A stretch of 38,370 nt of DNA from assembly GCA_022736535.1 (NCBI GenBank), contig DZCT01000002.1:1-38370 (forward strand). Direction: 5' to 3'. The DNA is from Desulfatirhabdium butyrativorans. GTDB lineage: Bacteria; Desulfobacterota; Desulfobacteria; Desulfobacterales; JAIFKL01. This document shows, piece after piece, positions 6,505 through 38,311 of this stretch (the first letter of the stretch is position 1; each line of letters starts with the position of its first letter). The position numbers were made by a program, and so were the translations under genes. The notes below the pieces were generated by a model. The model ran no database searches. It saw only the letters and a program-made list of their open reading frames with translations, and was not told where the DNA came from.

Positions 6505-6522
6505 TTGTAAGGGGAAAATACA

Positions 6523-9500: not shown

Positions 9501-12500
9501 AATTTCGGAGTTTGATTTCGGTCTCTTTACAAGCAAATACGATGTGACATTTACCGTAACGGAAACCCGCAATGACTTGGATGTCCTCCTCGAATACAAC
9601 ACGGATTTGTTCCGTGAAGACCGTATGCTGAGGATGAAAAACCATCTTGAAGAATTGACGAAAAGCGTAGTCACGGATCCGAGTCAGTCTGTGGCGCATG
9701 TCAACATTCTTCCGGAATGGGAAAGACATAAGATTCTTTTTGAGTTCAACGATACGGCTACGGAATATCCGAGAGACAAAACTATCGCCGAGGTATTTGA
9801 GCAAAAAGCAAAGCAAGTACCGAATCATCCGGCAGTTGTCTATGAAGGAACGGTTTTGTCTTATCGAGAACTGAATGCCTGTGCGAATCAACTCGCGCAT
9901 ACACTGAGAGATAAATTCGGCCTCGGACTTGAGGAGCGTGTGGGCATACTGCTTGACAAAAGCGAGCGCACGGTTATATCGCTTCTGGGAATTCTCAAAG
10001 CCGGGGGCGCGTGCATGTCTATAGACCCCATGTATCCTGCTGAACGTATTAAATATATGATCGAAGATGCCCAATGCAGTGTCGTGCTTTCGGAGGGAAA
10101 ATATCTCAGGGATGTGATGTCGCTCTGTTCCGGCATTCAGGCAATTGATGTCTCAAAATTCGGACTCCGAAATCCGGAATTCGACATTGAAATGCCTGAT
10201 CTGAAGCCGCTGGGAAACGGCAGAAGTCTTGCTTATGTGATTTATACTTCAGGTTCTACGGGCAAGCCCAAAGGTTCGCTGATCGAACAGCGGACTGCGA
10301 TGCGGGTTATATTGAATACCAACTACATCAATATTCGGGAATCGGACCGGCTTTTACAGACTGTCTCTTTTTCTTTCGATGTCTCGGTGTTTGAGGTATG
10401 GGGCGCTCTGCTGAACGGCGCATGTCTTTATGTGATTCCGGACCGGGCAGTCGTAGAGGCGGATAAAATGAAGCATTATGTGAGTCATTATAAGATCACA
10501 ATCATGTGGCTGACAACGAGCCTGTTTAACGAACTCTCAGATGCGGAAATCGGAATTTTCGAGGGATTGGAGATTCTGCTGGTGGGCGGTGAGAAACTTT
10601 CTCTGCCTCACATCAACAGAGTCAAGAAAGCGCATCCGAATCTGAAGGTGATTAACGGCTACGGTCCCACAGAAAACGGAACTTTTACTACCTGCCATCA
10701 TATAGATAAGTTTTATGAAAGAGATATTCCGGTGGGCAAGCCACTTTCCAACACACAGGTTATCGTGCTGGATGCGAACAATGAGATTGCGCCGATAGGG
10801 ATTCCGGGGGAACTTTGCACGAGCGGCGAAGGGCTTGCCAGAGGTTATCTCAACAGACCGGAACTGAGCAGGGAGAAATTCGTTCCACATCCGTATCTGC
10901 CGGGAGAGCTGATGTACCGCATCGGCGACATGGCAAGATGGATGCCGGACGGCTGTGTTGAATACTTCGGGCGGAATGACGATCAGGTAAAAATAAGAGG
11001 TTACAGAATCGAACTGGGAGAAATCCAGAACAGACTGTTGCAGCATCCTGCGATTCGTCAGGCGGTTGTCTTAGACAGGCTGAATAAATCATCTCAGACT
11101 AAAGAACTGACCGCTTATTTTGTGTGCAGGGAAGAGATAAAAATGCCGCCGGATATTTCGGAATTACGGAGTTTTCTGGCGCAATTTCTGCCGAATTACA
11201 TGATTCCGGCTCATTTTGTTCACATGGAAGTTTTTGCCCTCAATGCCAACGGAAAGGTGGACAGAAACGTCTTGCCCTCGCCGGAGGAAGCTGCTATGGG
11301 CATTCCTACAACGCTGACACCTCCCCGGAATGAGACCGAGGCGCAATTGCTCAGGGCATGGCAACGGATACTGGGGAATGAAGCTGTCGGCATTTATGAT
11401 AACTATTTCTCCATCGGCGGAGATTCCATCAAGGCGATTCAGATTGTCTCCCGTCTTCAGGAGGAAAACTTGAAGATAGAAGTAAGAGACATTTTTCAGG
11501 AGCCGACCATTGCAGGTTTGGCGGAAAAAGTCGTAAAAACCGGCTGTGTGGCGGATCAAAGTATGACGACAGGAGTTGTTCCGCTGACGCCGGTTCAATG
11601 CTGGTTTTTTGACAATTACAGACAGGCGAGACATCATTTCAATCAGTCTGAAATGCTCTGTTCAAAAGAGAGATTTCAGGAAGATGCGCTCAGGACGGCG
11701 CTTGAAAAAGTTCAGGAACATCACGATGCCCTGCGGATGAGATTCAGGATTCAGGATTCAGGAGAGATCATTCAGGAGAACTGCGGCGCAGACTACCCCA
11801 TCGGCTTTGAAGTCGTCTCGATTGCAGATGCGAAAGATACGGTTTCCCGGTTAGAACAACATGCCGATGAAGTTCAGGCAAGTATGAATCTGGAGACAGG
11901 TCCCCTGATGAAAGTCGTTCTGTTTCAGATGCAGGACGGAGATCGTCTTCTTATCGTGCTGCATCATCTGGTCATTGACGGCTTTTCATGGCGTATTCTG
12001 GCTGAGGATATTCGCCGAGCCTACGCGCAATGTCTTGCCGGAGAAGCGGTTCGTCTGCCTGCCAAGACGCATTCTTTTAAATACTGGTCTGAGCAGTTGC
12101 AAAATTACGCGGACTCGGATGAGCTATTGAGAGAAAAAGCGTACTGGAAAGCTGTCGAATCGGCGCCGATAAAATCTTTGCCGAGAGATTTCGATGCAGA
12201 GAATGTCTCAGCACGCGTCAGAGACGCCCGAACCGTAGGAATTTCTCTTTCCGAAGATGAGACAAAGATGCTGCTGACAAAAGTGAATCATGCCTACAAC
12301 ACGGAGATTAACGACATCCTGCTGACCGCGCTGGCGCGGGCGATGAAGTCATGGCACGGAGACAATCAGACGCTCATCAACATGGAGGGTCACGGAAGAG
12401 AGAAATTTGCATCTCAGGAATTGGATGTGAGTCGAACCGTCGGCTGGTTTACGAGCATGTATCCCGTGATGCTGGAGATTCCCGACTCGGACGATCTCGG

Positions 12501-13727: not shown

Positions 13728-14768
13728 ATGAAGGTACGGTTGAACGGCGTTGAAGTTCGCTCGATAGCGGTTGTGCTGGGGGAGGAGGAATTTAATCTTG
13801 CCGAGCTTTATGATATTTATGAAAAAGATGAAGTCAATCGAATTATAAAAACAAACGGGATTTCAAAAATTCGGATTGCGCCGGAGGGCGTCTGCGCCTC
13901 TGATCTGTGCGAAAAAGCAGCCCGTCAGATATTGACAGACGATGAGACAAAGCGGATCGGCGCTGTCGTGTTTGTCTCTCAGACGCCGGACTATGTTTTA
14001 CCGGCAACCGGCGCATCCCTTCAGCATCGTTTGGGAATCTCGCAAGATACCGCGGCGTTTGACATCAATCACGGATGTTCCGGCTATGTTTACGGGCTGT
14101 ATCAGGCGTCTCTGTTAGTGGCTTCGGGAAGCTGCGATTCGGTGCTGGTCTGTGCGGGCGATACTCTCACACGCTATGTCAATCCGCTCGACAAGTCAAA
14201 TCGCACGGTGTTCGGCGATGCAGGCAGCGCAACACTTGTAGGAAAAGGAGACAGCGATATAGCTTTCAGCATCATGACGGACGGCTCCGGAGCGGAGCAT
14301 CTGATAATTCCTGCGGGCGGGTGCCGTTATCCGAAAGATGAGAACTCGGAAACGGTCTCCGTGAGAAAAGACGGAAATATGCGCTCGGATGAAGACCTTT
14401 TTATGAACGGGCTGGAAGTCATGAATTTCTCTCTTCGGGAAGTTCCTAAAACCGTGGAAGCCGTTCTCTCATGCAAGGGATGGGACAAGTCGGAAGTCAC
14501 ACTTTTCGGATTTCATCAGGCAAATAAATTCATGCTTGACTACCTGAGAAAAACGCTCAAAGTTCCGAAAGAAAGCCTTCCGATTGCAATGGGAGAAACC
14601 GGAAATACAAGTGCGGCGTCCATACCGACGATGCTTACACAGGAAGGCAAACGTCTCTCAGAAGAAAACAGACTGCAAAAAACGGTTCTGTGCGGATTCG
14701 GAGCAGGTTTGTCCTGCGCCGCCGCAGCCTTAGACCTTTCCAGGACAAAGATATTGGAAACGCTTTAA
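13728..14768 (+). CDS. 3-oxoacyl-ACP synthase III (KASIII / FabH-like condensing enzyme)
   Basis: 346 aa. Cys-His-Asn triad motifs: NHGCSGYVYG (Cys codon 14076-14078), GFHQANKFML, GETGNTSAASIP. GFGAGLS near the C-terminus. Confidence 0.9.
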   Translation: MKVRLNGVEVRSIAVVLGEEEFNLAELYDIYEKDEVNRIIKTNGISKIRIAPEGVCASDLCEKAARQILTDDETKRIGAVVFVSQTPDYVLPATGASLQHRLGISQDTAAFDINHGCSGYVYGLYQASLLVASGSCDSVLVCAGDTLTRYVNPLDKSNRTVFGDAGSATLVGKGDSDIAFSIMTDGSGAEHLIIPAGGCRYPKDENSETVSVRKDGNMRSDEDLFMNGLEVMNFSLREVPKTVEAVLSCKGWDKSEVTLFGFHQANKFMLDYLRKTLKVPKESLPIAMGETGNTSAASIPTMLTQEGKRLSEENRLQKTVLCGFGAGLSCAAAALDLSRTKILETL

Positions 14769-14800
14769 CTAATTGAGGGGTCGGGGAGTTTTTCCCCCGG

Positions 14801-14832
14801 ACTGTCATTTCGACGAACGAAGTGAGGAGAAA
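14801..14832 (+). repeat. Divergent relative of the CTGTCATT unit
   Basis: ACTGTCATTTCGACGAACGAAGTGAGGAGAAA lies between the KASIII and SBP genes. It shares the ACTGTCATT head and GAAG core with 18078-18107. It is preceded by the GC hairpin CGGGGA..TCCCCG (14782-14799). Confidence 0.6.
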
Positions 14833-14839
14833 AAGAGAA

Positions 14840-15577
14840 ATGAGAAAATCAGTAATAGTTATACTTGCGATGGCAATCTTTTTTTTGCCGAAAAACGTGC
14901 TTGGTGAAGAAATTGTTTTTGCCACCACTCAGGTGCCGCCCTTTGTGTATAAGGAAAACGGAAGCTGGGCAGGTATTGATGTGGATATGATTCGGGAAAT
15001 CTGCAAACAGCACGGACTTGAGCCGGAGTTCAAAGACCTGCCGTGGAAAAGAGGTTTAAGCGATGTGGAGAAAGGCAAGGTTGACGGCATGTTTCCTTTG
15101 TTCCGCACCAAAGAGCGAATAAAGTTTATGTATTTTCCGTCCGAATATGTTGATACGGTGAAAACCGTCATTCTGGTTCAAAAAGGAAGTGATATAAAAA
15201 TCAGCAGTCTCAATGACTTGAAAGATAAAAAAATTGCAACGGTTGCCGGTTTTTCCTACGGACCAATCTTTGATGCCTATACCGGGCTGAAAAAAGAAGA
15301 ATGTTATGATATGGAGACGCAGGCAAAAATATTGGATAAGGGGCGTGTTATGGCAGCAGTCGTGCCTCATCTCCCCTTCGGATTTATCTCTAAACAACTC
15401 GGTTTCCATGACAAGTTTGAAACGGCATATATCATATCCGAAGATCATAATTATGTGGGATTTTCCATGAAACTTGAAGGAGATAAAGGCAAATTGCTCG
15501 CTGAAAAATTTGAGCAGAGCTTGCGGCAGTTGAGAGAACAAGGTGTAGAGGAAAAAATTCTGGCAAAATACCGTTAG
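14840..15577 (+). CDS. Periplasmic solute-binding protein, family 3 (amino-acid-binding type), orphan
   Basis: GAGGAG sits 10 nt upstream of ATG 14840; the GTG at 14822 in the ORF track is less likely. Signal-peptide-like MRKSVIVILAMAIFFLPKNVLGEE. Body EIVFATTQVPPFVYKENGSWAGIDVDMIREICKQHGLEPEFKDLPWKRGLSDVEKGKVDGMF is typical of SBP_bac_3 proteins. No permease or ATPase gene is adjacent. Confidence 0.8.
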   Translation: MRKSVIVILAMAIFFLPKNVLGEEIVFATTQVPPFVYKENGSWAGIDVDMIREICKQHGLEPEFKDLPWKRGLSDVEKGKVDGMFPLFRTKERIKFMYFPSEYVDTVKTVILVQKGSDIKISSLNDLKDKKIATVAGFSYGPIFDAYTGLKKEECYDMETQAKILDKGRVMAAVVPHLPFGFISKQLGFHDKFETAYIISEDHNYVGFSMKLEGDKGKLLAEKFEQSLRQLREQGVEEKILAKYR

Positions 15578-15698
15578 TGTTTTGCCACGAATGAACACAA
15601 ATTTTTTACGAACAAAAAACACGAATTTTATTAAAAGTATAAATCTGTTAAATAGTAAACGATTGTCAAATCTTAAACTCAGGAGAAAAACAATTCCC

Positions 15699-15995
15699 GT
15701 GTATGAAAGAATTATTGATATAGTCATTCAGCAGGCAAAAGAACTGAACGAGGAATTGGCGAACAAAATTCCGCTCGAACAGGGCGCGGATGCGCCGCTG
15801 TTCGGGAAAGACGGCGTTCTGGATTCCATCGCGTTGGTGACGCTGATAGTTGCGGTCGAACAGGCAGTCGAAGATGAATTTGACACAGCCCTGACCATTG
15901 CCGACGAAAAAGCCATGTCGCAGAAAATCAGTCCTTTCAGAACTGTCGGCAGTTTAGCCGAGTATATTCAAAAGCTGGTCAAAGGAGAGATTTAA
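15699..15995 (+). CDS. Free-standing acyl carrier protein
   Basis: GVLDSIALVTLIVAVEQ carries the DS(I/L) phosphopantetheine-attachment motif (Ser codon 15825-15827). I chose the GTG start at 15699 with AGGAG at 15681-15685, giving 98 aa. The ORF-track start at 15582 would add an Asn/Lys-rich extension encoded by AT-rich spacer. Confidence 0.75.
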   Translation: MYERIIDIVIQQAKELNEELANKIPLEQGADAPLFGKDGVLDSIALVTLIVAVEQAVEDEFDTALTIADEKAMSQKISPFRTVGSLAEYIQKLVKGEI

Positions 15996-16694
15996 GTGGA
16001 AACGCCGATAACGCTGATTACAGGCGCAAGCAAAGGAATCGGAAAGTTTCTTGCACAATATTATCTCAGACAGGGGCATCGTGTGATCGGTTGCAGCCGT
16101 TCAGATACAGATTGGAAAGCAGAAGGATATGAACATCATCTCGCAGATGTGAGCCATGAAACTGATGTAAAAAAACTTTTTTCTGATATTCGCAGAAAAT
16201 ACGGAAAATTGGATCATCTCATCAACAACGCGGGCATTGCTTCCATGAATCACTTTATGCTCACGCCCCTGGCAGCGGCGCATAAAATTTTTGACACGAA
16301 TTTTATGGGAACTTTTCTTTTCTCCCGGGAAGCGGCAAAGCTGATGAAAAAGCAGCAATACGGAAGAATCGTAAACTTTTCCACCGTAGCCGTTCCCTTA
16401 AAACTTGAAGGAGAAGCCATCTACGCGGCGTCGAAAGCCGCGGTTATCTCTTTTACACAAGTTATAGCGAGAGAATTGGCAGACTTCGGGATAACCGTGA
16501 ATGCCGTGGGTCCCGCGCCTGTTCAGACGGATCTGATAGCCGCTGTTCCGAAAGATAAAATTCAGAATTTATTGGACAGACAGGCGATTCACAAGTTTGC
16601 CGAGTTTGAAGATGTCGCCAATGTGATTGACTTTTTTATCAGAAAAGAGAGTGCGTTTATCACGGGACAGGTTCTGTTTCTCGGAGGTATTTGA
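15996..16694 (+). CDS. Short-chain dehydrogenase/reductase (FabG-like ketoreductase)
   Basis: The GTG start abuts the ACP stop. Motifs: ITGASKGIGKFLA (TGxxxGxG), NNAG, YAASKAA (YxxxK), PAPVQTD. 232 aa. Confidence 0.9.
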   Translation: METPITLITGASKGIGKFLAQYYLRQGHRVIGCSRSDTDWKAEGYEHHLADVSHETDVKKLFSDIRRKYGKLDHLINNAGIASMNHFMLTPLAAAHKIFDTNFMGTFLFSREAAKLMKKQQYGRIVNFSTVAVPLKLEGEAIYAASKAAVISFTQVIARELADFGITVNAVGPAPVQTDLIAAVPKDKIQNLLDRQAIHKFAEFEDVANVIDFFIRKESAFITGQVLFLGGI

Positions 16695-18132: not shown

Positions 18133-21100
18133 ATGTTTGCCAAAAAAAATGTAAAGAATATCTGCGCATTGACGCCGCTTCAGGAAGGCATTCTTTTTCA
18201 TGCGCTGTACAGCAAGGAAAATGCAACTTATTTTGAACAATTCAACTATCATATCTCCGGAAAGACAGATATTCCGCTGTTTGAAGCCGCCTGGAATGAA
18301 CTGATGCGGCGGCATGATATTTTCAGAACCGTGTTTGTGCATAAAAATGTGCCCCAGCCCTTACAGATTGTTCTCAAAGAACGCAAGATTGACTTTACTT
18401 TTGAAGACATCCGCAGTCTCAGCCCGGAAGCGCAGCGGGACCGCTGGCTCGTTTACAGAGAAAAAGATAAGAAAAGATATTTTGACCTGAGCAAAGATGC
18501 GCTGATGCGGGTGGCGGTGTTTCAACTGGCTGAAAATTCATTCAATATAACATGGAGCTTTCATCACATCGTCATGGACGGCTGGAGCGTGGGCATTGTT
18601 TATGACGAGCTGATTACTCTTTATCATTCCATGAGAAACGGAAACACAACGACACTGCCGGCGCCCGTGTCTTTCGGCGAGTATGTGAAATGGCTGAAAA
18701 AACAGGATACCGAAGCTGCAAAAGACTACTGGCGGAAATATTTGGCAGACTACCGCCGCCTGACCGGTTTGCCTCGTATTCTCGGAGAAAAGAAAAAAGA
18801 ATTTGTCAAAAAGACTTTTGAGTTCAAACTTTCTGAAACCATGTCTCAAGGATTGCGGGATACGGCTGCCCGGCATCATGTGACCGTCAACACGGTGATT
18901 CAGGTGATCTGGGGTATTCTTTTGGGGAAATACAACGATGCGACAGATGCGGTCTTTGCCGCAACCGTTTCGGGCAGACCTGCTGATCTCAAAGGTGTTG
19001 AGCGCATTGTCGGACTTTTTATCAATGCGATTCCGGTCCGCATTCAGATGAGACAGGGACAGACGACAGAAGCTTTGCTGCAAAAGACGCATCATGACGC
19101 TGCGGAAAACAAAGACTACCATTATTACTCGCTGGCAGACATTCAGTCAGAGACGCTTCTCAAACAGCGCCTTCTGGATCATCTTCTGATATTTGAAAGT
19201 TATCCGGATTTGGGGAAGTCGGAAGGACGCGGGGAGACCGAGTTTGTCATTGACGAGTTTGAACAGTTTGAACTCACCAACTATGATCTTTCCGTACAGG
19301 TTTTTCCGGAAGAGACATTTCATTTCTGTGTTATTTATAACGCTTCGGTTTATGAGCAAAACATAATAGAAAAGATTGAACCGCATCTGAAAACAATTAT
19401 TGAGTCAATTCTGAAAGATGCAGAAGTCGAACCGTCACAAATTGCGCTGCTTTCACCTGATGAGCAGGAGACATATCGGAAAGCTGCAAATGAGATAAAT
19501 GAGTCATTGCTGAAACTGCCTGTGCAGAGAGACGGAGCAAGAAGTTTGTCGGCAGTTTATGCAGAGCCGGAAAACGAGGCGCAGGAAAAATTGGTCTCGA
19601 TATGGAAAGAAGTCATGAATGTCGGGACCCTCGGCATTGATGACAACTTTTTTGAACTGGGCGGACACAGCCTGATGGCAACCCGGATTGTCTCCCGCAT
19701 CCATAAGATATTTGAAGTCGAAATCACCTTGCAGGAATTTTTTGACCGTCCGAATGTGAGGAAATTAAGCGAAGTCATTTCCCGGCACGCTGCCGCCGCG
19801 TATTCGGAGATTGAAGTCATTCCCGAACAGGAAGACTACGAAGTCTCCCATTCTCAGCGCAGACTCTGGATTTTAGACCGGATGGAAGAAAATTTCATTG
19901 CTTATAATCAGTCTGCGGGTTTTCTTTTTAAAGGAGATATGGACATTCCCGCGTTAAAACGTGCAGTTCGCTCGGTCTGCCGGCGGCATGAATCCCTGAG
20001 AACCGTCTTTGTTATGAAAGACGGAACGCCGAGACAGAAAATTCAGGCAGCCTCGCAAGTTGAGATTACAGAAACTGACTTGAGCCGTGCGGAGAATAAA
20101 GAAGATATAGCAAAAAATTATGCAAGGAAAGAGGCAACGCTTCCTTTTGATTTGGAAAAGGGACCCCTGTTGAGAGTCAGCATCCTGCGGCTTACAGATG
20201 ACTCCCGTTTATTGCTCATAAATATTCATCATATTATCTGCGACGGCTGGTCGGTTGTGCTTTTTGAAAATGAGATATTGACGCTGTATAAATCCTTTAC
20301 AGAAGGGCATGAAGCGGATTTATCTCCTTTGAAAATACAGTACAAAGACTACTCGGCATGGCATAACCGGCTTTTGGAAAGCGAGAATATCCGGGCGCAT
20401 CAGGCATACTGGCATCAGAAATTATCCGGCGAACTGCCGGTACTGAATCTCCCGACAGATTACCCGCGTCCCGCTACACTGAGCTATAAGGGAAACACCG
20501 TAACGCATGTTCTGAACGCCGAACTTTCCGCATCTCTTGATCAATTTTGCAGAGAAAAGCAAGTCAGTCTTTTTATGACTCTGCTCGCGGGCGCAAAAGT
20601 GCTGCTGCACCGCTATACGGGACAGAACGACATCATCATCGGTTCGCCGATTGCCGGCAGAATTCACCCGGATTTGGAACATCAGATCGGTTTCTTTGTG
20701 AACACGCTTGCCCTGAGAGATACGGTTCTCGGCGATGAAAGTTTTATGACGCTGCTGTCAAAGGTGAAGCAGACCACGCTTGAGGCATACCAGCATCAGG
20801 TTTACCCTTTTGACAAGCTGGTAGAAGAACTTGATGTTCAGCGGGACATCAGCCGCTCGCCGATTTTTGACGTGATGCTCGTTTTGCAGAATACCGACGA
20901 GATAAAAACTGATCTGCCGAATGTGGAGATAAAGCCTTTTGCTTATGAAACCGGCGTGAGTCAGTTTGATCTCACGCTGATTTTCACGCAGGATGAGGGA
21001 AAACTCCGGCTCGACATGAACTGCAACACCGATCTGTTTGCAAATGAGACAATCCTGCGGATGGGAAGGCATTTCGAGGAAGTGCTGAAAAGCATTCTGT

Positions 21101-24100
21101 CAGCGCCGGAGCATCAGATTCGGAACATAAACCTGTTGAGCGCGGCAGAGAAACAGCAGATTCTCTTTGACTTTAACAACACCAAAGCCCCGTATCCCGA
21201 AGACAAGACATTGGCTGATCTCTTTGAAGAACAAGTCATCAGGACGCCGGACAATATCGCGGTCATTTTTGAGGAAAAGCAGATGACTTACAGGGAACTG
21301 AATGACGCGGCAGACCGGCTCGCGCATGATCTCAGAGACAAGTATCAGATTCAGCCTGATGATCTGGTTGCTGTGATGATGAAGCGTAGCGAACAGCTCA
21401 TTGTCTCATTGCTGGGAATTTTGAAAGCAGGCGGCGCGTATCTGCCCATAGACCCCGCCTATCCTCAGAAAAGAATTGACTACATGCTCAACGACAGCGC
21501 ATGTAAGGTTTGCATAGGGGTACGGGGTACGGGGTTAGAGGTTCGGGGGGCGGGGGCCGCCCCTCGCACCTCTAACCTCAAACCTCAAACCTCGAACCTC
21601 GCCTACGTCATCTACACCTCCGGTTCTACCGGACAGCCCAAAGGCGTTATGATTGAACACCGCGGGTTTGTAAACATGACGCTGGATCAGATCAGAGGCT
21701 TCGGCGTGTCGGAATCGGATCGGGTGTTGCAGTTTTCTTCTCCTTCTTTTGACGCGTCATTGTCTGAGATATTCATGGCATTGCTCAAAGGCGCGGCATT
21801 GGTCATGATTTCGACAGACACGATTAATGACTCACATCGTTTTCTCGAATATATTGAGAGACATAAGGTAAGCGTGATTACCTTTCCGCCGGTCTATCTG
21901 AATATGCTCAACAAACATCCGCTGCCCACGGTCAGAACCATTATCACCGCGGGCGAACCCGCCATTCTCGGCGATGTGCTGTTTTACTGCAAAGACAGAC
22001 AGTATTTCAACGCCTACGGGCCTACGGAAACATCGGTCTGCACCTCATATTACAGAGTGCCGCCTGATTTCCGTGCGCCCTATTCCGGGTTCCGCATTCC
22101 CATCGGCGCGCCCATCGCCAATTCCTCTGTTTTTATTGTGGATGAGTCAATACAGCCCGTGCCGGTAGGCGTGACGGGAGAAATCTGTTTTTCGGGCGTG
22201 GGACTTGCCAGGGGGTATCTCAACAAGCCGGAACTGACCGCAGAGAAATTTGTCGAAAATCCTTTTCACCCCGGAACCCGGCTGTACAAAATCGGCGATC
22301 TGGGAAAATGGCTTCCGGACGGCAATATTGTTTTTCTCGGGAGAAAAGACGATCAGGTAAAAGTCAGAGGCTTCCGCATCGAACTGGGAGAAATCGAAAG
22401 CCGCCTGAAACAGCATCCGCAAATAACAGACGCATTGGTTCTGGCTGTGGGGGAAAACGAAAACTCAAGGCAATTAGTCGCATATCTCATTACGCATTCG
22501 GAAATAAATCTGGGAGAAATGAGAAATTTTCTGGGCGAAAGTCTTCCGCCTTTTATGATGCCGAATCATTTTGTGAGTCTTGAAAAATTCCCGCTCACCG
22601 TAAACGGAAAAATTGACAAGCGGGCTTTGCCCGGCGTTTCATCGGATTTGTCTCACGGACCGGATGATATGCCGCCCCGGAACGAGACAGAAGCAACACT
22701 TCTGAATGTCTGGAAAAAACTGTTTCAGAAAGAGAAAATCGGCATTTATGATGACTTCTTCGCGCTCGGCGGCGATTCCGTCAAAGCCATTCAGACCGTA
22801 TCGCTGCTGCATGAGCAAAACCTGAAGGTCAGAGCCAAAGATATTTTTCAATACCCCACAGTTGCACAGTTGGCTAAAGCCGCTGTTTTGTCCGGGCGCG
22901 GTCTTGCAGCAAATCAGGAGATGATTTCCGGCTATGTGCCGCTGACCCCGATTACCGCATGGTTTTTTAAAGAATTTACGGTTGACAGACATCACTTCAA
23001 CCATTCCGACCTGTTCTGTGTCAGAGAAAGGCTTGACGAAGACGCGCTGCGCGCCGCGTTTGCAAAGATACAGGAACACCATGACGCGCTGAGAATGCGC
23101 TGCCGCTTTGAAAACGGAAACTGGAAATTGGAAATTGCGGGAGACAATTATCCCCTGCATTTTGAAGTAACAGATTTGCGAAACTCGGAACAGGCGGTTT
23201 CGGAACTGGAATCCCACGCACAGCAGCTTCAGTCAAGCCTGAATTTGAAGAAAGGTCCTCTGATGAAAGCGGTTTTGTTCCGAATGCCTCATCCGGAGTG
23301 TCAAAATGAAATTTTGACAAGCACAGACCGGCTGCTGATTATCGTGCATCATCTCGTGATTGACGGCGTTTCATGGCGTTTTTTTCTGGAAGACCTTTTG
23401 CGGGGATATGAGCAGTATTTATCAAATAAGACCGTTACCCTGCCCCCGAAAAGCGATTCTTTCAAAGAATGGGCGGAAGGGATTCAGACATACAGCAGCA
23501 GCGATGAACTGCTCGGAGAAAAAGAATATTGGCGGCAGTTGGAAGCAACGCCGACCGGAGAACTGCCATGGGATGATGATTCCTCCCCCTCAGACACGGA
23601 TGAGGCGCGGATGAAGCATACCTTCACAGCCGATTTTAACTTGTCTCAGGCGGAAACCGAAATGCTTCTGACCTGTAGAGACGCAACATTTTGTGTCTCT
23701 GACGCGGCGAGAACCGATGAACTGCTGCTCACCGCACTGGCATGGGCGCTGAAACAATGGCACGGACATGACAGAACGCTGATTCATCTTGAAGGACACG
23801 GACGGGAAGATATTGTCAGGGGGACCGATGTCAGCCGGACCGTCGGCTGGTTCACGGCGGTTTATCCGGTGATCTTAGATTCGCCGGACGCATCTGATGC
23901 GGTGCAGATCGGGACAATTAAAGGCATTCTGCGAAATATTCCCAACCGGGGCATGGGATACGGGATTCTGAAATATGTGACGCCCTCGGCATATAAACAG
24001 GAATTGAAGTTCAATTTAAAGCCCCGCATCAGTTTCAACTATCTGGGTGAAATGGAGGCTTACGGAACCGGCATTTTTGAAAGGGCAACCGAATCCTGCG

Positions 24101-24288
24101 GCAATGCGGTCAGCCCGGACGCAAAGCTTATCCATGATATAGACATCAATGCGGTCATCATTGAAAAAAAACTGCATATTGACCTGACGGCAAACGGCTT
24201 GAAGTGCCGCCCCGAGCGCATTGAAAAAATTTTATCGGATTTTAAAAATAAATTGAAAGAAATAATTGCAAAGTGTGAAAAAATATGA
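18133..24288 (+). CDS. Non-ribosomal peptide synthetase: C-T (no A domain) followed by C-A-T-E; no release domain
   Basis: C1: LTPLQEGILFH, RHDIFRTVF, HHIVMDGW (from 18562). T: FFELGGHSL (Ser 19669-19671). C2: SHSQRRLWILD, RHESLRTVF, HHIICDGW (from 20227). A: LAYVIYTSGSTGQPKG (from 21598), NAYGPTETS, YKIGDLGKW, GRKDDQVKVRGFRIELGEIE, NGKIDKRALP. T: GGDSV (Ser 22777-22779). E: HHLVIDGVSW (from 23347), EGHGRE, RTVGWFT, FNYLGE. The protein ends ..IIAKCEKI with no thioesterase or reductase motif. Confidence 0.95.
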   Translation: MFAKKNVKNICALTPLQEGILFHALYSKENATYFEQFNYHISGKTDIPLFEAAWNELMRRHDIFRTVFVHKNVPQPLQIVLKERKIDFTFEDIRSLSPEAQRDRWLVYREKDKKRYFDLSKDALMRVAVFQLAENSFNITWSFHHIVMDGWSVGIVYDELITLYHSMRNGNTTTLPAPVSFGEYVKWLKKQDTEAAKDYWRKYLADYRRLTGLPRILGEKKKEFVKKTFEFKLSETMSQGLRDTAARHHVTVNTVIQVIWGILLGKYNDATDAVFAATVSGRPADLKGVERIVGLFINAIPVRIQMRQGQTTEALLQKTHHDAAENKDYHYYSLADIQSETLLKQRLLDHLLIFESYPDLGKSEGRGETEFVIDEFEQFELTNYDLSVQVFPEETFHFCVIYNASVYEQNIIEKIEPHLKTIIESILKDAEVEPSQIALLSPDEQETYRKAANEINESLLKLPVQRDGARSLSAVYAEPENEAQEKLVSIWKEVMNVGTLGIDDNFFELGGHSLMATRIVSRIHKIFEVEITLQEFFDRPNVRKLSEVISRHAAAAYSEIEVIPEQEDYEVSHSQRRLWILDRMEENFIAYNQSAGFLFKGDMDIPALKRAVRSVCRRHESLRTVFVMKDGTPRQKIQAASQVEITETDLSRAENKEDIAKNYARKEATLPFDLEKGPLLRVSILRLTDDSRLLLINIHHIICDGWSVVLFENEILTLYKSFTEGHEADLSPLKIQYKDYSAWHNRLLESENIRAHQAYWHQKLSGELPVLNLPTDYPRPATLSYKGNTVTHVLNAELSASLDQFCREKQVSLFMTLLAGAKVLLHRYTGQNDIIIGSPIAGRIHPDLEHQIGFFVNTLALRDTVLGDESFMTLLSKVKQTTLEAYQHQVYPFDKLVEELDVQRDISRSPIFDVMLVLQNTDEIKTDLPNVEIKPFAYETGVSQFDLTLIFTQDEGKLRLDMNCNTDLFANETILRMGRHFEEVLKSILSAPEHQIRNINLLSAAEKQQILFDFNNTKAPYPEDKTLADLFEEQVIRTPDNIAVIFEEKQMTYRELNDAADRLAHDLRDKYQIQPDDLVAVMMKRSEQLIVSLLGILKAGGAYLPIDPAYPQKRIDYMLNDSACKVCIGVRGTGLEVRGAGAAPRTSNLKPQTSNLAYVIYTSGSTGQPKGVMIEHRGFVNMTLDQIRGFGVSESDRVLQFSSPSFDASLSEIFMALLKGAALVMISTDTINDSHRFLEYIERHKVSVITFPPVYLNMLNKHPLPTVRTIITAGEPAILGDVLFYCKDRQYFNAYGPTETSVCTSYYRVPPDFRAPYSGFRIPIGAPIANSSVFIVDESIQPVPVGVTGEICFSGVGLARGYLNKPELTAEKFVENPFHPGTRLYKIGDLGKWLPDGNIVFLGRKDDQVKVRGFRIELGEIESRLKQHPQITDALVLAVGENENSRQLVAYLITHSEINLGEMRNFLGESLPPFMMPNHFVSLEKFPLTVNGKIDKRALPGVSSDLSHGPDDMPPRNETEATLLNVWKKLFQKEKIGIYDDFFALGGDSVKAIQTVSLLHEQNLKVRAKDIFQYPTVAQLAKAAVLSGRGLAANQEMISGYVPLTPITAWFFKEFTVDRHHFNHSDLFCVRERLDEDALRAAFAKIQEHHDALRMRCRFENGNWKLEIAGDNYPLHFEVTDLRNSEQAVSELESHAQQLQSSLNLKKGPLMKAVLFRMPHPECQNEILTSTDRLLIIVHHLVIDGVSWRFFLEDLLRGYEQYLSNKTVTLPPKSDSFKEWAEGIQTYSSSDELLGEKEYWRQLEATPTGELPWDDDSSPSDTDEARMKHTFTADFNLSQAETEMLLTCRDATFCVSDAARTDELLLTALAWALKQWHGHDRTLIHLEGHGREDIVRGTDVSRTVGWFTAVYPVILDSPDASDAVQIGTIKGILRNIPNRGMGYGILKYVTPSAYKQELKFNLKPRISFNYLGEMEAYGTGIFERATESCGNAVSPDAKLIHDIDINAVIIEKKLHIDLTANGLKCRPERIEKILSDFKNKLKEIIAKCEKI
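19570..19783 (+). other. Carrier (T) domain of an adenylation-less C-T module inside NRPS3
   Basis: ENEAQEKLVSIWKEVMNVGTLGIDDNFFELGGHSLMATRIVSRIHKIFEVEITLQEFF follows the first C domain after a short linker. No A-domain core motif lies between them. Domain boundaries are approximate. Confidence 0.8.
21517..21600 (+). repeat. Palindromic heptamer-repeat element, intragenic and in frame (A domain of NRPS3)
   Basis: Twelve contiguous 7-mers. G-rich arm: GGGGTAC GGGGTAC GGGGTTA GAGGTTC GGGGGGC GGGGGCC. C-rich arm: GCCCCTC GCACCTC TAACCTC AAACCTC AAACCTC GAACCTC. GGTTAGAGGT (21533-21542) and ACCTCTAACC (21568-21577) are exact reverse complements. 84 nt = 28 codons, translated GVRGTGLEVRGAGAAPRTSNLKPQTSNL. 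Confidence 0.9.
23292..23323 (+). repeat. Small palindromic element, family 2, intragenic and in frame (E domain of NRPS3)
   Basis: TCCGGAGTGTCAAAATGAAATTTTGACAAGCA. Perfect 9-bp stem TGTCAAAAT / ATTTTGACA with loop GAA. It encodes part of HPECQNEILTS, 10 residues absent from the two sister E domains. Confidence 0.85.
23676..23701 (+). repeat. Small palindromic element, family 3, intragenic and in frame (E domain of NRPS3)
   Basis: TAGAGACGCAACATTTTGTGTCTCTG matches the intergenic palindrome at 33258-33283 at 23 of 26 positions. The stem keeps a G-U wobble on the + strand RNA. It encodes CRDATFCVSD in place of the (K/N)VNHAY(N/H)T motif of the sister E domains. Confidence 0.8.
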
Positions 24289-24322: not shown

Positions 24323-24404
24323 AATAAAGTTTTTATATATTTCCCGTTTCAATGTTCTGCGTCCTCTGTTTCGGACTGTTCCATGCCGTGACGCACGCAG
24401 CCGT

Positions 24405-24482
24405 AAAGCGAGTTTGAAACTCGCTTTGCAATGCAGAGCGGGGTTGTCAAATCTTGCGCAGGGTAAGCACGGGGGCTTACCC
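24405..24482 (+). other. Two stable hairpins in the 250-nt spacer upstream of 24538
   Basis: AAAGCGAGTTT g AAACTCGCTTT (24405-24427) and GGGTAAGC acgggg GCTTACCC (24461-24482). Neither is followed by a T-run. Confidence 0.5.
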
Positions 24483-25490: not shown

Positions 25491-25560
25491 CAGGTTCGAG
25501 GTTTGGGGTTCGAGGTTCGAGGACTTCTCCCGCACCCGCACTCCGTACCCCGTACCCCAT
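25491..25560 (+). repeat. Palindromic heptamer-repeat element, intergenic copy
   Basis: CAGGTTC GAGGTTT GGGGTTC GAGGTTC GAGGACT | TCTCCCG CACCCGC ACTCCGT ACCCCGT ACCCCAT. The right arm ACCCCGTACCCC is the reverse complement of the GGGGTACGGGGT seen at 21517. It lies between the stop at 25479 and the start at 25575. Confidence 0.9.
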
Positions 25561-25574
25561 CTGGGAGAAAAAAA

Positions 25575-27371
25575 ATGAGGAAAAAACAAAATACGGTGTT
25601 TGACAAAGCATTCCGTCTTTGTACGGCAATCCTGATGCTGATGTTCTCCGCTTTCGGATGCGGCGGCGAACATGAAGATTATGTCTCTGAGAGAGAAGGA
25701 CGCTTTATAGACAGCGCCGTGCAGGGACTGTCCTATATTTCCGGCAGTCGTACCGACATAACCGATGAAAACGGGACTTTCTTTTATGAAAAAGGCAAAG
25801 ATGTCACATTCAGGCTCGGAAACATTGTACTCGGGTCTGCGACAACTGTTCTGGAATTAGATATAAAAACACAGGAACTTGCGCCGGACATACTGACGCT
25901 GACCCCCAGAGATCTGGTTTCCGCAGCGGAAAGCGACAGAGACCCGCAGGTGACAAATATTCTGCGCTTTTTGCAGACATTGGATGATGATGCGAATCCG
26001 GATAACGGCATTATGCTGTCAGAATCTGTGAGACAAAAAGCAGAAAAATACAGTACGGAAGTTGACTTCTCATTAAGCACAGACAAATTTGAAGAAAAAA
26101 TACAGACTGTCGTAAATGATCTGCTGGGCAAAGAGCGGGAACTGATTTCCGCGGTCAGGGCGCAGAATCATTTTATTCGGACCAAATTGCAGGAGATATT
26201 GGACAAAGCGGTTTCAGAAAACGAGGTTCCCGGCGTGGCACTCGTTGCGGAAGTTCCCTGCGAGGGAGAAGACTGTGCAGACGGCGCGATGGACGGCGTG
26301 ACTTATTCGGACGGAAAATTTACATGGAAGCTGACAAGCGGTTATTCCAATCTGGAAACCCAAACGCCCATGACCGCCGATACCCGATTCCGGGTTGCCA
26401 GTCTGACCAAAACATTTGTGGCAATGACCGTCATGCAAATGGTCGAGGAAGGAAAGATAACTCTCGACGATTCCATAGAACAGTGGTTTCCCGGACTGAT
26501 TCCCAACGGTGAAAACATCAATATCCGTCAGGTGGTGAATCACTCCAGCGGGCTTTATAATTTCTATGAAGTGCCTTCCGACTGGTTTTTTGATTTCCTG
26601 TTTCTCCGTCAGGATAAATGGGATCCGCTTGATCTCATTGAACTTGCGGTTGAAGAAGGACCGACATTTGCTCCCGGCACAGACTGGCATTATTCAAACA
26701 CAAATTATGTCCTGCTGGGAATGCTCATAGAGAAAGTGACCGGCAACAAGTGGGAAGATGAGATACGAAATCGTTTTATCAATAAATACGGACTGTCCGA
26801 CACCATTGTACCGGAAACCGGGGAGTCAAATCTTGAAGGTCCTTATGTTCAGAATCCGACAGAAGGAAAATACGCCCACGGCTACATTGACCTGTATGAT
26901 GTGACCGGCGCCATGTACGGAAGTAAAAACAAAGGCTTGGAAGACGCTTCGACTCGGGAACCGTCTGCTGCGAGTTCATCGGCATGTATGATTTCCTCGC
27001 CTGAAAATCTGTGCTTATGGATCAGACTCATCGGCGAAGGCAGGCTGTTCGGTGAAGGCTATGATTTTGTCAATGACACCGGCGTTGATCCTGAACTTTA
27101 TTTTCCGATGAATGAGGCAACGGATTGCGGTCCCAATATCTACAAAAATCTCGCAAACAACATGCTGATTGCTTCGGGTAATTTTCTGGGTTACGATGTG
27201 GGTATTGTCTATGATCCGAATCATGGGATACCGATTGCCACATGCGCCAACAGGACATTGAGGTCTGAAGACGGTCAGATAAAAGATATTGTCATTTTTG
27301 ACGCGATTGAGATTCTGGGCGCCGGACTGCCGACGGCTGAAAAAAGGTCGGCGGATTCTGAAGAAATTTGA
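25575..27371 (+). CDS. Secreted (possibly lipoprotein) serine hydrolase of the beta-lactamase / S12 D-peptidase fold, with a ~230-aa N-terminal domain of unknown function
   Basis: I chose the ATG at 25575 (GGGAGA 8 nt upstream); the ORF-track start 25476 would translate the heptamer repeat. N-terminus MRKKQNTVFDKAFRLCTAILMLMFSAFGCGG has a signal peptide with a Cys at a lipobox-like position. SxxK: ASLTKTF (26400-26411). YxN: YSNTNY (from 26691). HG in KYAHGYID. Confidence 0.85.
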   Translation: MRKKQNTVFDKAFRLCTAILMLMFSAFGCGGEHEDYVSEREGRFIDSAVQGLSYISGSRTDITDENGTFFYEKGKDVTFRLGNIVLGSATTVLELDIKTQELAPDILTLTPRDLVSAAESDRDPQVTNILRFLQTLDDDANPDNGIMLSESVRQKAEKYSTEVDFSLSTDKFEEKIQTVVNDLLGKERELISAVRAQNHFIRTKLQEILDKAVSENEVPGVALVAEVPCEGEDCADGAMDGVTYSDGKFTWKLTSGYSNLETQTPMTADTRFRVASLTKTFVAMTVMQMVEEGKITLDDSIEQWFPGLIPNGENINIRQVVNHSSGLYNFYEVPSDWFFDFLFLRQDKWDPLDLIELAVEEGPTFAPGTDWHYSNTNYVLLGMLIEKVTGNKWEDEIRNRFINKYGLSDTIVPETGESNLEGPYVQNPTEGKYAHGYIDLYDVTGAMYGSKNKGLEDASTREPSAASSSACMISSPENLCLWIRLIGEGRLFGEGYDFVNDTGVDPELYFPMNEATDCGPNIYKNLANNMLIASGNFLGYDVGIVYDPNHGIPIATCANRTLRSEDGQIKDIVIFDAIEILGAGLPTAEKRSADSEEI

Positions 27372-27374
27372 AAA

Positions 27375-27444
27375 AAGGTTAGGGGTTAGGGGTTCGAGGT
27401 TCGGGGTCAGAGGTCGCACCCCGAACCTCGCACCCCGAACCCCA
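27375..27444 (+). repeat. Palindromic heptamer-repeat element, intergenic copy (strong hairpin)
   Basis: AAGGTTA GGGGTTA GGGGTTC GAGGTTC GGGGTCA GAGGTCG | CACCCCG AACCTCG CACCCCG AACCCCA. CGAGGTTCGGGGT (27395-27407) pairs perfectly with ACCCCGAACCTCG (27418-27430). It lies between the stop at 27371 and the start at 27451. Confidence 0.9.
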
Positions 27445-27450
27445 TAAAAT

Positions 27451-29085
27451 ATGAACCTGCTGAAACTATATAAAAAAGAGTCAACTGTTTCCGGCAACTC
27501 GGTGATGTTTATGGCGATTGCTTCCGGCATCGCACAGGGACTTCTGCTGGGCATCATCACCACTGCTGCAGCCACGGCTTCCTACGACAGCCTGAATTTC
27601 AGATTCTTTCTGCTGTTTGTGATTGCCTTCGCCATTGTTATCATCGGAAAACGCTTTGCTTTGAAAAGAGCCACTGCCATCGCCGAGGGGATCATCAAAC
27701 GTATAAGGATAAGAATTTCCGATAAAATCAGAAATTCCGAACTCCTGTTTCTGGAACATACCGGAAAAGCCGAAATCTATACACGGATTACTTACAACAC
27801 CAATCTGATTTCCGAATCCGCGGTGCTGATTATCAATGCAGCCCAGTCCGGCATTGTGCTGTTTTTCTGCCTGTTTTATATCGCTGTCTTATCGAACTTG
27901 GCTTTTTTCATCACCGTTATTGCCATCGGCGCGGCTACAGCCAATTATATGTTGCAGCAGGATAAAATTGACATAGAAATCCGTGAAACCGCCGGAAAAG
28001 AAAGCACCTTCTTTGAGATGCTGAATCAGACTCTTGACGGCTTCAAAGAACTGAAAATGAACCGAAAAAAAAGCGATGACCTTTTCGGATATCTGACAAA
28101 AATAGCAGATGAAACCGAGGAACTGAAAGTAAAAACCGGCTTCAGATTTGTCACAGAACTGATGTTCTCCCAGGTCTTTTTTTATACGCTGCTGGCGGTC
28201 ATTGTTTTTGTTCTGCCCCGATTGGACCCGGCAAATCCTTCATTGGTTATCCGACTCACTGCCGCGATTCTGTTTATTATCGGACCGGTAAATCTGATGG
28301 TGGGCGCGATACCGCTTTTTTCCAGAGCCAACATGGCGGTGGAAATTCTCTATGAACTTGAAAAGCGTTTGGATGATGCTGCAGCGCCGTTTAAAGTCGG
28401 GGACAAGCCCTATATCAGAAAGATCGAATCCTTTAACGAACTCCGGCTTGACAACCTTTCTTTTTCCTATGCCGATCCTTACGGAACGCCTTTATTTACG
28501 GTCGGTCCCGTCAATATGACGATCCGGAAAGGAGAAATCGTCTTTATCGTCGGCGGCAACGGCAGCGGAAAATCAACGCTGCTCAAGCTTTTAACCGGAC
28601 TGTATTATCCCGATGCCGGCACCATCCGATTGGATGATTTGACGATTGATAAGACATCCTATCAGGCATATCGGGAAATGTTTTCAATTATTTTCAGTGA
28701 TTTTCATGTGTTTGACAGACTCTACGGCTTGGATGAAACCGATTTCGATAAAATCCGAAATCTTATCAAGCTGATGGAACTGGAAAAGAAAACAGAAGTG
28801 ATTGACGGCGAATTTACCAATATCAAGCTTTCCACGGGCCAGCGGAAAAGACTGGCGATGATCTGTGCTTTGCTGGAAAACCGTCCGATCTGCGTGTTTG
28901 ATGAATGGGCGGCGGATCAGGATCCGATATTCAGAAAATATTTTTATGAAACTCTGCTGAACGATTTGAGAGCGCAGGGAAAAACAATTATCGCGGTCAG
29001 CCATGACGACCGATATTTCGGCTTTGCAGACAGAGTATTAAAAATGGAATACGGCAAGTTTGTCGAGTACAGCAGTCAGATTTGA
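27451..29085 (+). CDS. ABC exporter, fused TMD-NBD, cyclic-peptide transporter family (SyrD / PvdE / YojI-like)
   Basis: 544 aa with about six N-terminal TM segments. Walker A GGNGSGKST (28552-28578), signature LSTGQRKRLA, Walker B ICVFDEWAADQD, SHDDRYF. By eye the NBD strongly resembles E. coli YojI as I recall its sequence. Confidence 0.9.
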   Translation: MNLLKLYKKESTVSGNSVMFMAIASGIAQGLLLGIITTAAATASYDSLNFRFFLLFVIAFAIVIIGKRFALKRATAIAEGIIKRIRIRISDKIRNSELLFLEHTGKAEIYTRITYNTNLISESAVLIINAAQSGIVLFFCLFYIAVLSNLAFFITVIAIGAATANYMLQQDKIDIEIRETAGKESTFFEMLNQTLDGFKELKMNRKKSDDLFGYLTKIADETEELKVKTGFRFVTELMFSQVFFYTLLAVIVFVLPRLDPANPSLVIRLTAAILFIIGPVNLMVGAIPLFSRANMAVEILYELEKRLDDAAAPFKVGDKPYIRKIESFNELRLDNLSFSYADPYGTPLFTVGPVNMTIRKGEIVFIVGGNGSGKSTLLKLLTGLYYPDAGTIRLDDLTIDKTSYQAYREMFSIIFSDFHVFDRLYGLDETDFDKIRNLIKLMELEKKTEVIDGEFTNIKLSTGQRKRLAMICALLENRPICVFDEWAADQDPIFRKYFYETLLNDLRAQGKTIIAVSHDDRYFGFADRVLKMEYGKFVEYSSQI

Positions 29086-38105: not shown

Positions 38106-38309
38106 ATGTCACCGACAATCATCACCATAGCGTGGGTAGCAGCGAGTCTGGTGATCGGACTCATGGGGATCAACAGGAAAATGGGATTTTGGGGCTATTT
38201 TTTCGGTTCGATGCTTCTGGGACCTGTCATCGGTTTATTCTTACTGCTTGCCTCTGACAAAAGAACCCCGGTCAAAGCCGAAATCGAGGAAGTGAGGAGT
38301 GAGGAGTGA
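38106..38309 (+). CDS. Small two-TM membrane protein, unknown function
   Basis: I chose ATG 38106, because the ORF-track start 37959 overlaps the preceding gene. Sequence: MSPTIITIAWVAASLVIGLMGINRKMGFWGYFFGSMLLGPVIGLFLLLASDK. The last codons (EEVRSEE*) are encoded by an AGTGAGG heptamer run. Confidence 0.45.
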   Translation: MSPTIITIAWVAASLVIGLMGINRKMGFWGYFFGSMLLGPVIGLFLLLASDKRTPVKAEIEEVRSEE

Positions 38310-38311
38310 GT
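38291..38311 (+). repeat. Tandem heptamer AGTGAGG x3 spanning a stop codon
   Basis: AGTGAGG AGTGAGG AGTGAGT. It supplies the last codons and the TGA (38307-38309) of the small membrane ORF. Confidence 0.7.

Follow-up and report, generated by a model that had tools for sequence, protein, structure and literature searches.

The window analyzed here is a 38,370-nt stretch of Desulfatirhabdium butyrativorans DNA (GCA_022736535.1, contig DZCT01000002.1, positions 1 to 38,370). It carries a nonribosomal peptide synthetase (NRPS) gene of the order condensation (C)-thiolation (T)-C-adenylation (A)-T-C, in which a palindromic array of 7-nt units, hereafter the heptamer element, lies in frame between the A2 and A3 core motifs of the A domain. 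Two further copies of the element lie downstream. The relevant features are as follows.

18133..24288, plus strand: host NRPS gene, intact, 2051 residues, C-T-C-A-T-C, all A-domain core motifs present (Pfam, translation, syntenic orthologs, substitution rates)
21421..21453, plus strand: A2 core motif LKAGGAYLPID, residues 1097-1107 (motif search)
21517..21558, plus strand: first half of the in-frame element (G arm), made up of six GRGGNNN heptamers that encode GVRGTGLEVRGAGA (sequence, translation, tandem and inverted repeat detection)
21559..21600, plus strand: C arm of the element, six NNNCCTC heptamers encoding APRTSNLKPQTSNL, the last codon being the Leu of A3 (sequence, translation, repeat detection)
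21598..21633, plus strand: A3 core motif LAYVIYTSGSTG, residues 1156-1167 (motif search)
25491..25560, no strand: degenerate copy between a DUF481 gene and a beta-lactamase-family gene; about 15 nt separate its end from the likely ATG at 25575
27375..27444, no strand: well-preserved copy, flanked by the stop of the beta-lactamase-family gene (27371) and the ATG of an ABC transporter gene (27451)

The element in the NRPS gene is an 84-nt block of twelve heptamers (21517-21600). Six units of the form GRGGNNN (GGGGTAC, GGGGTAC, GGGGTTA, GAGGTTC, GGGGGGC, and GGGGGCC) are followed by six of the form NNNCCTC (GCCCCTC, GCACCTC, TAACCTC, AAACCTC, AAACCTC, and GAACCTC). Tandem repeat detection returned a period of 7, and at most two identical units stand side by side. 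Position 21517 is the first base of codon 1129 in the open reading frame (ORF) 18133-24288; thus, the block opens on a codon boundary, and it is read in frame and without a stop codon as GVRGTGLEVRGAGAAPRTSNLKPQTSNL. Its final codon, CTC, supplies the Leu of the A3 motif. The twelve-unit block, its start on a codon boundary, its stop-free frame, and the role of its last codon had been described in the initial annotation and were reproduced from the sequence and its translation. The tryptic peptides predicted from the segment are GTGLEVR, GAGAAPR, and TSNLKPQTSNLAYVIYTSGSTGQPK. The 3' boundary of the element is ambiguous by about 11 nt because an element-free ortholog has native CCTCGAATCTG there, which already resembles a C-arm unit; the last 11 nt or so may be native or may reflect microhomology. 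Among the copies, inverted repeat detection gave arms of 26 to 38 nt with 74 to 92% complementarity, and the folding z scores of well-preserved copies ranged from -6.5 to -8.9.

The host ORF was resolved by Pfam into Condensation, PP-binding, Condensation, AMP-binding, PP-binding, and Condensation domains. Its AMP-binding match was single and uninterrupted, with no extra domain, and the translation shows the carrier and condensation signatures as well as all core motifs of the A domain. From the end of A2 to LAY, the host gene has 48 residues, compared with 69 in NRPS1 and about 67 in NRPS2 (the latter counted by hand), which are the window's other two A domains. The intervals of 47, 68, and 66 residues reported earlier were therefore correct to within one residue.

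The other two copies had been taken as intergenic. This was confirmed, with the qualification that the copy at 25491-25560 is intergenic only if ATG 25575, preceded by GGGAGA, is the true start; a mechanical ORF from TTG 25476 would read through it. This copy forms a weak hairpin (z -1). The copy at 27375-27444 has arms of 26 nt with 92% complementarity and folds with a free energy of -48.7 kcal/mol (z -8.9). The pattern GRGGTNNGRGGT matched 17 times in the window, always inside one of the three elements, when 0.09 matches were expected from shuffled sequences.

The element was then traced through relatives of the host gene. Two further members of the host protein's 90% cluster, deposited in the protein database from other assemblies, carry an identical element peptide, and the full-length member differs from the window protein at only 3 of 2051 residues. 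These independent assemblies give the same junction peptide, which speaks strongly against an assembly chimera at the junction. Syntenic clusters with orthologs were found in a Frasassi cave metagenome (L001, 81% identity) and in a metagenome from ENA (L002, 80%), and an ortholog with 70% identity lies in a 21.7-kb locus of GCA_029935875.1 (L003). In L001 and L002, a heptamer palindrome occupies the same A2-A3 site, with lengths of 66 and 72 nt and with units different from those of the window. The 3' junction, ..CCTC followed directly by GCCTAC, is common to all three, and the encoded peptide is not conserved between the orthologs. At this site L003 has the ordinary A-domain sequence SGMQMPDIDIPCLEIETLNSQLTNDELQIENPQSPITSSN without the 28 residues, and no copy of the heptamer family was found anywhere in the 21.7 kb of its locus. 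Set against the nearest ortholog without an element, the window protein has lost about 40 native residues and gained 28. The more distant orthologs of the Magnetomorum group are also element-free, and their A2-A3 stretch has only about 23 residues. The initial annotation had held the block to be dispersed repeat DNA, not native A-domain sequence, and had named, besides an unsupported junction, two findings that would speak against it: the same 28 residues in an ortholog from a repeat-free genome, or a lack of further copies. The element-free 70% ortholog and the many copies in relatives, described below, both upheld the claim. The simplest history is that the element was inserted once, in an ancestor that the three element-bearing lineages share and that had already diverged from the lineage of the 70% ortholog.

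The four orthologous ORFs are all intact, with 2046 to 2055 residues. Synonymous divergence (dS) was about 0.65 between the window and L001 or L002 and ranged from 0.47 to 0.66 between element-bearing lineages. The ratio of nonsynonymous to synonymous divergence (dN/dS) of the window against L001 and L002 was 0.155 to 0.172 over the whole gene and 0.10 to 0.11 in the A domain downstream of the element; against element-free L003, the latter value was 0.08. The host gene has thus been under purifying selection since the element was acquired. Nowhere is the protein better conserved than in the 300 residues that follow the element (76 to 94% identity to L003), and element-free orthologs have equally conserved A domains. 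Because identity to L003 is highest right after the element, a recombination breakpoint or swap of the A core at this position was rejected.

The hairpin shows no sign of selection and is decaying in one lineage. The folding energy of the NRPS copy as RNA weakens from -56.6 kcal/mol in the window (z -6.5) to -44.5 in L001 (z -4.0) and -29.9 in L002 (z -1.2). Across 13 copies, no consistent difference in stability was found between the sense and antisense strands when G.U asymmetry was considered (sense minus antisense, -10 to +16 kcal/mol, with no trend). As a separate observation on the flank, 15 nt kept in all three orthologs (L001:4301-4338 and L002:6568-6605) are missing immediately to the left of the element, at window position 21508-21516. 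VLLTESG became VC, and the conserved VLLTE strand was altered to KVCIGV.

The intergenic sites showed a turnover of their own. The sites orthologous to both intergenic copies of the window are empty in L001, L002, and L003, which shows that elements were gained and lost over a dS of about 0.5 to 0.65. Between the NRPS and DUF481 genes, L001 (7116-7163) and L002 (9360-9410) share an orthologous copy, with a degenerate G arm in L002; this copy is absent from the window and L003. Only 6 nt separate the end of the copy at 27375-27444 from the ABC transporter ATG, and this gap contains no Shine-Dalgarno sequence of its own, which may be a coincidence. G-arm units (GAGGTGA, GRGGT) could pair with the 3' tail of the 16S rRNA, and the C-arm unit TCACCTC equals that tail (window positions 27375-27451 and 25491-25577).

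Other repeats were noted in the same DNA. A second, unrelated hairpin family (GCGGGTTTSAAACCCGC / GGACGGGGTTTGTAACCCCGTCC), similar to repetitive extragenic palindromes (REP), lies in the intergenic DNA of the NRPS cluster in all four genomes (window 24385-24420; L001:8215-8245 and 10100-10130; L002:12405-12435; L003:16990-17380), with five or six copies in a row in element-free L003. Two direct heptamer repeats without an inverted arm were also seen in the window: GAGGAGT x3.4 at 38286-38310, at the 3' end of a small ORF (..EEVRSEE, then stop), and TTCTCAC x2.3 at 6491-6506, in the spacer that precedes the second NRPS gene.

The A domain of the window, as modeled with AlphaFold, matches solved A domains. 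In this model, the strands VCIGVR and GLEVRG form a beta hairpin with a predicted local distance difference test score (pLDDT) of 65 to 76. A disordered stretch over AGAAPRTSNLKPQTSN follows, and the C arm has a pLDDT below 50. For the L003 domain, which lacks the element, the model (mean pLDDT, 82) shows a short strand, a helix, and a long coil at that place. Between A2 and A3, the window protein falls short of LgrA by only 12 residues, and its LEVRGAG aligns with the LgrA strand IDVHDPD. The GLEVRG encoded by the G arm thus seems, as far as the models go, to re-form the lost strand. The earlier claim that the element had replaced a structured segment was half right, because a predicted short strand and a helix were lost among the roughly 40 native residues, yet the region is the most variable and is peripheral; the element seems to supply a substitute strand, and the ligase copy described below was simply inserted into a loop. 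Adenylation is retained when methyltransferase sequences are inserted between a2 and a3, whether naturally (TioN and MarQ) or by engineering (PMC11355689). In another Desulfobacterales NRPS (P0010, L103:8240-8430, GCA_024244725.1, metagenome-assembled), this stretch holds (TGGAAAC)x5 together with a different, unrelated palindrome of 103 nt, all in frame; the palindrome has arms of 20 nt (100%) and 21 nt (90%). The A2-A3 stretch is thus a recurrent landing site.

Species-representative genomes were scanned with the two-armed pattern. At least 99 stretches were returned, a set in which counts per genome and per phylum are not quantitative. Among the matches listed, the family is rich in two Desulfobacterales metagenome-assembled genomes (MAGs): DYRK01, which is labelled Desulfatirhabdium butyrativorans and comes from the Frasassi sample shared with L001, and JAIFKL01, a Desulfobacteraceae bin. 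Three copies were counted in the window, three in L001, two in L002, 17 in 74 kb of DYRK01 loci, and five in the 13.8 kb of L107. Across the genomes of a Desulfobacterales clade, the family occurs roughly once per 10 kb. About 12 of 29 copies (window, L001, L002, and MAG loci among the matches listed) lie in frame within long ORFs, and Pfam confirmed the host ORFs as real genes. The in-frame copies outside the window's NRPS gene include the following.

L001:15225-15320, minus strand: copy in a PaaK-like (DVU_1553 family) AMP-dependent ligase, gene 14666-16072; also in L104, L105, L106, and L107
L020:411-474, 1004-1070, and 2312-2336: two or three copies in a glycogen debranching enzyme
L031:4261-4337; L037:1826-1857 and 2284-2349; L069:1648-1710; L007:6146-6219; L107:2394-2440: further in-frame copies in Desulfobacterales MAGs

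Their hosts are diverse. One copy lies inside the HATPase_c domain of a hybrid histidine kinase, in the ATP-lid region. A polyketide synthase (PKS) has a half copy in the linker between its ketosynthase and acyltransferase (AT) domains and a full copy in the AT domain itself. Others are in an NRPS T-C linker, at the junction of two GT9 domains, and in the C-terminal tail of a methyltransferase. The statement that no precedent was known in NRPS domains thus needs updating, given the copies in the T-C linker and the PKS AT domain and the different palindrome in the A2-A3 stretch of L103.

The family is recognized by its architecture. Units have the form GRGG-T-NN in the G arm and NN-A-CCYC in the C arm; the last two positions of the G unit are free, and variants are mixed within an array (spacer counts: TTC, 27; TCA, 21; TGA, 17; plus others). 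Elements are 45 to 115 nt long, and the C arm lies 3' of the G arm in every two-armed copy. The termini are GRGGT... and ...ACCYC in all of the 26 two-armed copies that were aligned, and neither a GTAG nor a CGTC tag is present. A common style is seen in the encoded peptides, (G/E)VRGxGS for the G arm and PEPRTxN, PLTSHPE, or TSNL for the C arm. No match to the window was obtained at the gathering threshold of Rfam 15, and a permissive search gave only weak chance matches to GC-rich microRNA hairpins. Neither a general literature search nor one with unit dimers (GGGGTCAGGGGTCA and similar) found a published description of the family; the general search brought up reviews of Rickettsia palindromic elements, of miniature transposable elements with inverted repeats (MITEs), and of REP, along with the paper on TAACTGA repeats. 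A synthetic element-peptide query against a set of 5.8 billion proteins returned 16 weak matches, all of them hypothetical ORFs of 60 to 97 residues, a result that says nothing about intragenic copies.

Beyond the Desulfobacterales, most matches in Planctomycetota proved to be a different, nested palindrome (CCCCTCGCCCCGGTACTCCGGGGAGAGGGGTCGGGGGTGAGGGG ... mirror) and were set aside. This palindrome is abundant in Gemmataceae and Planctomycetaceae MAGs, including long-read assemblies, and sometimes forms tandem arrays. Simple hairpins of a G arm followed by a C arm, with other units such as (GGGGTCA)n..(TGACCCC)n, GGGGTGT, and GGGGTTT, occur in Acidobacteriota, Gemmatimonadota, Chloroflexota, Hydrogenedentes, Elusimicrobia, and Alphaproteobacteria, with one in a cultured isolate (Natronospira elongata). 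Perfect heptamer hairpins of TCA and TGA units have stop codons in all six frames.

L006:2252-2360, L015:4105-4441, and L093:1702-2046: examples of the nested Planctomycetota palindrome (among L004-L102)
L029:2935-3000, L063:7502-7580, L083:840-931, L052:4333-4418, L051:7517-7575, and L092:4547-4615: examples of simple heptamer hairpins

The PaaK-like ligase allowed filled and empty sites to be compared directly. The element is present in seven lineages with 73 to 98% identity, adding 18 to 32 residues and staying in frame in all of them. Orthologs at 55 to 70% identity have the native loop EC-KSREGY-H, and their empty sites are clean. In the DNA, an 18-nt loop is replaced by 57 to 99 nt. The empty site (AAGTCAAGAGAAGGGTAT) has no clear heptamer seed, and the filled sites carry full two-armed elements. 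The insertion point could be placed between the Tyr and His codons from a lineage in which the native Gly-Tyr still stands to the left of the element. Here the element is a plain loop insertion. In one lineage, the C arm lost 42 nt (six heptamers) between two CTTACCTC repeats, by which the ORF was kept and the hairpin destroyed. The filled and empty series together with this deletion indicates that arrays change by recombination or slippage between units and that, within genes, only frame-preserving outcomes survive.

Taken together, these comparisons make it probable that a selfish or neutral repeat was inserted in frame, in an ancestor, into the insertion-tolerant A2-A3 segment and has since been translated and tolerated. 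The orthologs show that one copy of the dispersed palindrome family entered the NRPS gene in the ancestor of the three lineages and landed between A2 and A3, with a loss of about 40 native codons. None of the three lineages has since lost the frame or gained a stop codon in the element, and the rest of the gene, above all the A-domain core, has remained under strong purifying selection. The element would be transcribed and translated within the enzyme. The G arm may provide a Gly/Val/Arg-rich piece able to replace the lost beta strand, and the C arm a flexible surface loop rich in Pro, Thr, Ser, and Asn. The enzyme would tolerate the element because the A2-A3 stretch is peripheral and length-variable and accepts even whole methyltransferase domains. 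The element itself would have no function of its own; its hairpin would decay and its units turn over by slippage or recombination, while selection would remove changes that break the frame.

Several points weigh against this interpretation. No target-site duplication was found in the 26 aligned two-armed copies or between the filled and empty ligase sites, although old copies could have lost such duplications, and the 26 copies have no conserved flank. No associated transposase, RAYT included, was identified, in loci that were not screened for Y1 transposases or autonomous insertion sequences. Since a target-site duplication, a conserved terminus, and a transposase were all lacking, the insertion of a mobile copy is deduced from distribution. 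What defines the family is not a conserved sequence but a pattern in which each unit has two free positions, which is unusual for a transposed element, and at the 3' junction the native sequence looks like a C-arm unit, so that local seeding is conceivable. In addition, the genome-wide counts come from relatives and from loci among the matches listed and not from the source genome, the AlphaFold model of the window domain is of moderate confidence (mean pLDDT, 72; alignment of 24 sequences), and translation and function of the domain are suggested by sequence conservation only.

The hairpins might instead be made by a dedicated process, active in several phyla, and be neither ordinary transposed repeats nor products of slippage. 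Such a process is unlikely; it is raised because the invariant arm order, the conserved T at unit position 5, the two free positions, and the lack of target duplications are otherwise unexplained. Candidates would be an extension of both 3' ends at a DNA break by G-rich heptads, templated or semi-templated, and arrays selected as binding sites for a protein, or for the ribosomal 16S tail, reading a 7-nt register. If true, a dedicated process in Desulfobacterales would be a steady source of new enzyme surface loops, including those of NRPS and PKS domains.

Growth of the array in place is also unlikely. Native heptamer-like seeds, such as CCTCGAA at the A3 junction, would have been multiplied by slippage, with a strand switch making the inverted arm, and the genome-wide family would reflect a mutational process shared by many sites. 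This would fit the native CCTCGAATCTG exactly where the C arm ends, the absence of target-site duplications and conserved flanks, the heterogeneous units within an array, and a family that is a pattern and not a sequence. Similar two-arm heptamer hairpins with other units occur in many phyla, and heptanucleotide repeats were reported to be the commonest long simple repeats in most bacterial genomes (PMC4679880). However, slippage yields identical units and not mixtures of TTC, TCA, TGA, and TAC. Both arms are found together at every site, with the G arm always 5'; the empty ligase site has no clear seed while the filled ones are two-armed; and intergenic sites are either filled or completely empty between relatives.

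That the element is kept for a function, as an mRNA hairpin that pauses ribosomes or stabilizes the long transcript or as a peptide loop for docking or solubility, is improbable. It has persisted in frame over a dS of about 0.65 in the NRPS gene and in seven ligase lineages, the window hairpin is very stable, and the G-arm and C-arm units read as Shine-Dalgarno-like and as similar to the 16S 3' tail, respectively. Nevertheless, the hairpin has decayed in L002 and was destroyed by the 42-nt deletion in one ligase lineage whose ORF was kept. Stability shows no strand bias, the encoded peptide is not conserved between orthologs, and the A domains of element-free orthologs are equally conserved.

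A contingency switch, by which slippage of a single heptamer would turn the synthetase on or off within a population, is very improbable. The gain or loss of one unit does shift the frame, because 7 is not a multiple of 3, and arrays do change their unit number over time; but with at most two identical adjacent units in the window copy, slippage rates should be low, three assemblies of one species have an identical element peptide, and all seven ligase and three NRPS lineages are in frame. Finally, an assembly chimera at the repeat or a pseudogene that is still open can be dismissed almost entirely: repeats are classic sites of misassembly and the window comes from a metagenome-assembled contig, but the same junction peptide was found in three assemblies, homologous elements occupy the site in two other metagenomes, and the ORFs are intact (2046 to 2055 residues) with a dN/dS of 0.15.

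The in-frame copies matter beyond this gene. The inserts are a natural experiment on where large enzymes tolerate 20 to 30 extra residues, and the tolerant sites they reveal are the A2-A3 stretch, a PKS acyltransferase loop, the ATP-lid region of a histidine kinase, and a loop of a PaaK-type ligase. Knowledge of these sites is of direct use in NRPS and PKS engineering and in deciding if unusual low-complexity stretches of metagenomic proteins are genuine. The segments are also an annotation hazard, because gene callers and domain predictors meet them unrecognized. In addition, a mechanistic question is raised, namely, how palindromes defined by a heptamer pattern originate.

Among known repeats, REP and REPIN sequences are extragenic palindromes of 20 to 40 bp with a GTAG or CGTC tag at one end (PMC3733652). 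The heptamer element is likewise a short, G+C-rich, imperfect, multi-copy palindrome, with intergenic copies between convergent or co-directional genes. However, it has no such tag, is built as an array of heptamers, and has about 40% of its copies within genes; membership in the REP class was ruled out by the missing tag in 26 copies and by the location of about 12 of 29 copies inside long ORFs. Compared with MITEs, the entire heptamer element is an inverted repeat, and no flanking duplication is visible in the 26 copies or at the ligase site, though old copies could lose it. BRE of Bordetella, intragenic ERIC, and pneumococcal BOX and RUP are nonautonomous repeats that occasionally give in-frame fusions (PMC3184786). 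Those families are sequence-defined and MITE-like, with few internal in-frame cases (about 9 genes for BRE), in contrast to about 12 of 29 copies here.

Cyanobacterial STRR are heptanucleotide tandem repeats. The TAACTGA repeats of Beggiatoaceae are heptanucleotide direct repeats whose forward orientation carries stop codons (PMC4679880). Both share with the heptamer element the 7-nt period and an abundance in intergenic DNA, often just upstream of start codons, with a few copies inside ORFs. They consist, however, of one identical unit without an inverted arm, whereas the heptamer element mixes units and always pairs a G arm with a C arm. Identity with a simple heptanucleotide repeat was thus rejected, as units differ within arrays and every full copy has an inverted arm.

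Interrupted A domains such as those of TioN and MarQ hold foreign sequence between a2 and a3 and retain adenylation, which shows that insertions are tolerated at this site (PMC11355689, PMC8341866). Each of their inserts is a whole catalytic methyltransferase domain, several hundred residues long and with structured linkers; the 28 repeat-encoded residues of the heptamer element form no domain. An interrupted A domain in the catalytic sense was therefore ruled out by the single AMP-binding match and the 28-residue insert.

The closest likeness, as the initial annotation had suggested, is to the Rickettsia palindromic elements, and it holds in behavior. Those elements are about 100 to 150 bp long, have a conserved sequence and peptide specific to each family, and reside in obligate intracellular Alphaproteobacteria (Ogata et al. 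2000, 2002, summarised in PMC10969869). In both systems, dispersed palindromes lie in frame inside many unrelated functional genes, are kept in the ORF, and occupy places compatible with the fold. The heptamer element is multi-copy, dispersed, and palindromic and recurs in frame in functional genes for NRPS, PaaK-like ligase, glycogen debranching enzyme, histidine kinase, PKS, and GT9 proteins. Compared with the published description of the Rickettsia elements, it differs in consisting of degenerate arrays of 45 to 115 nt (GRGGTNN / NNACCYC) in free-living Desulfobacterales. The element in the NRPS gene is therefore not a one-off but an instance of a lineage-wide phenomenon, a protein-coding palindromic repeat with a distinct architecture and host. 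In-frame "selfish" palindromes have so far been known mainly from Rickettsia and a few pathogens, and the heptamer family adds a second, architecturally different system in free-living environmental bacteria.

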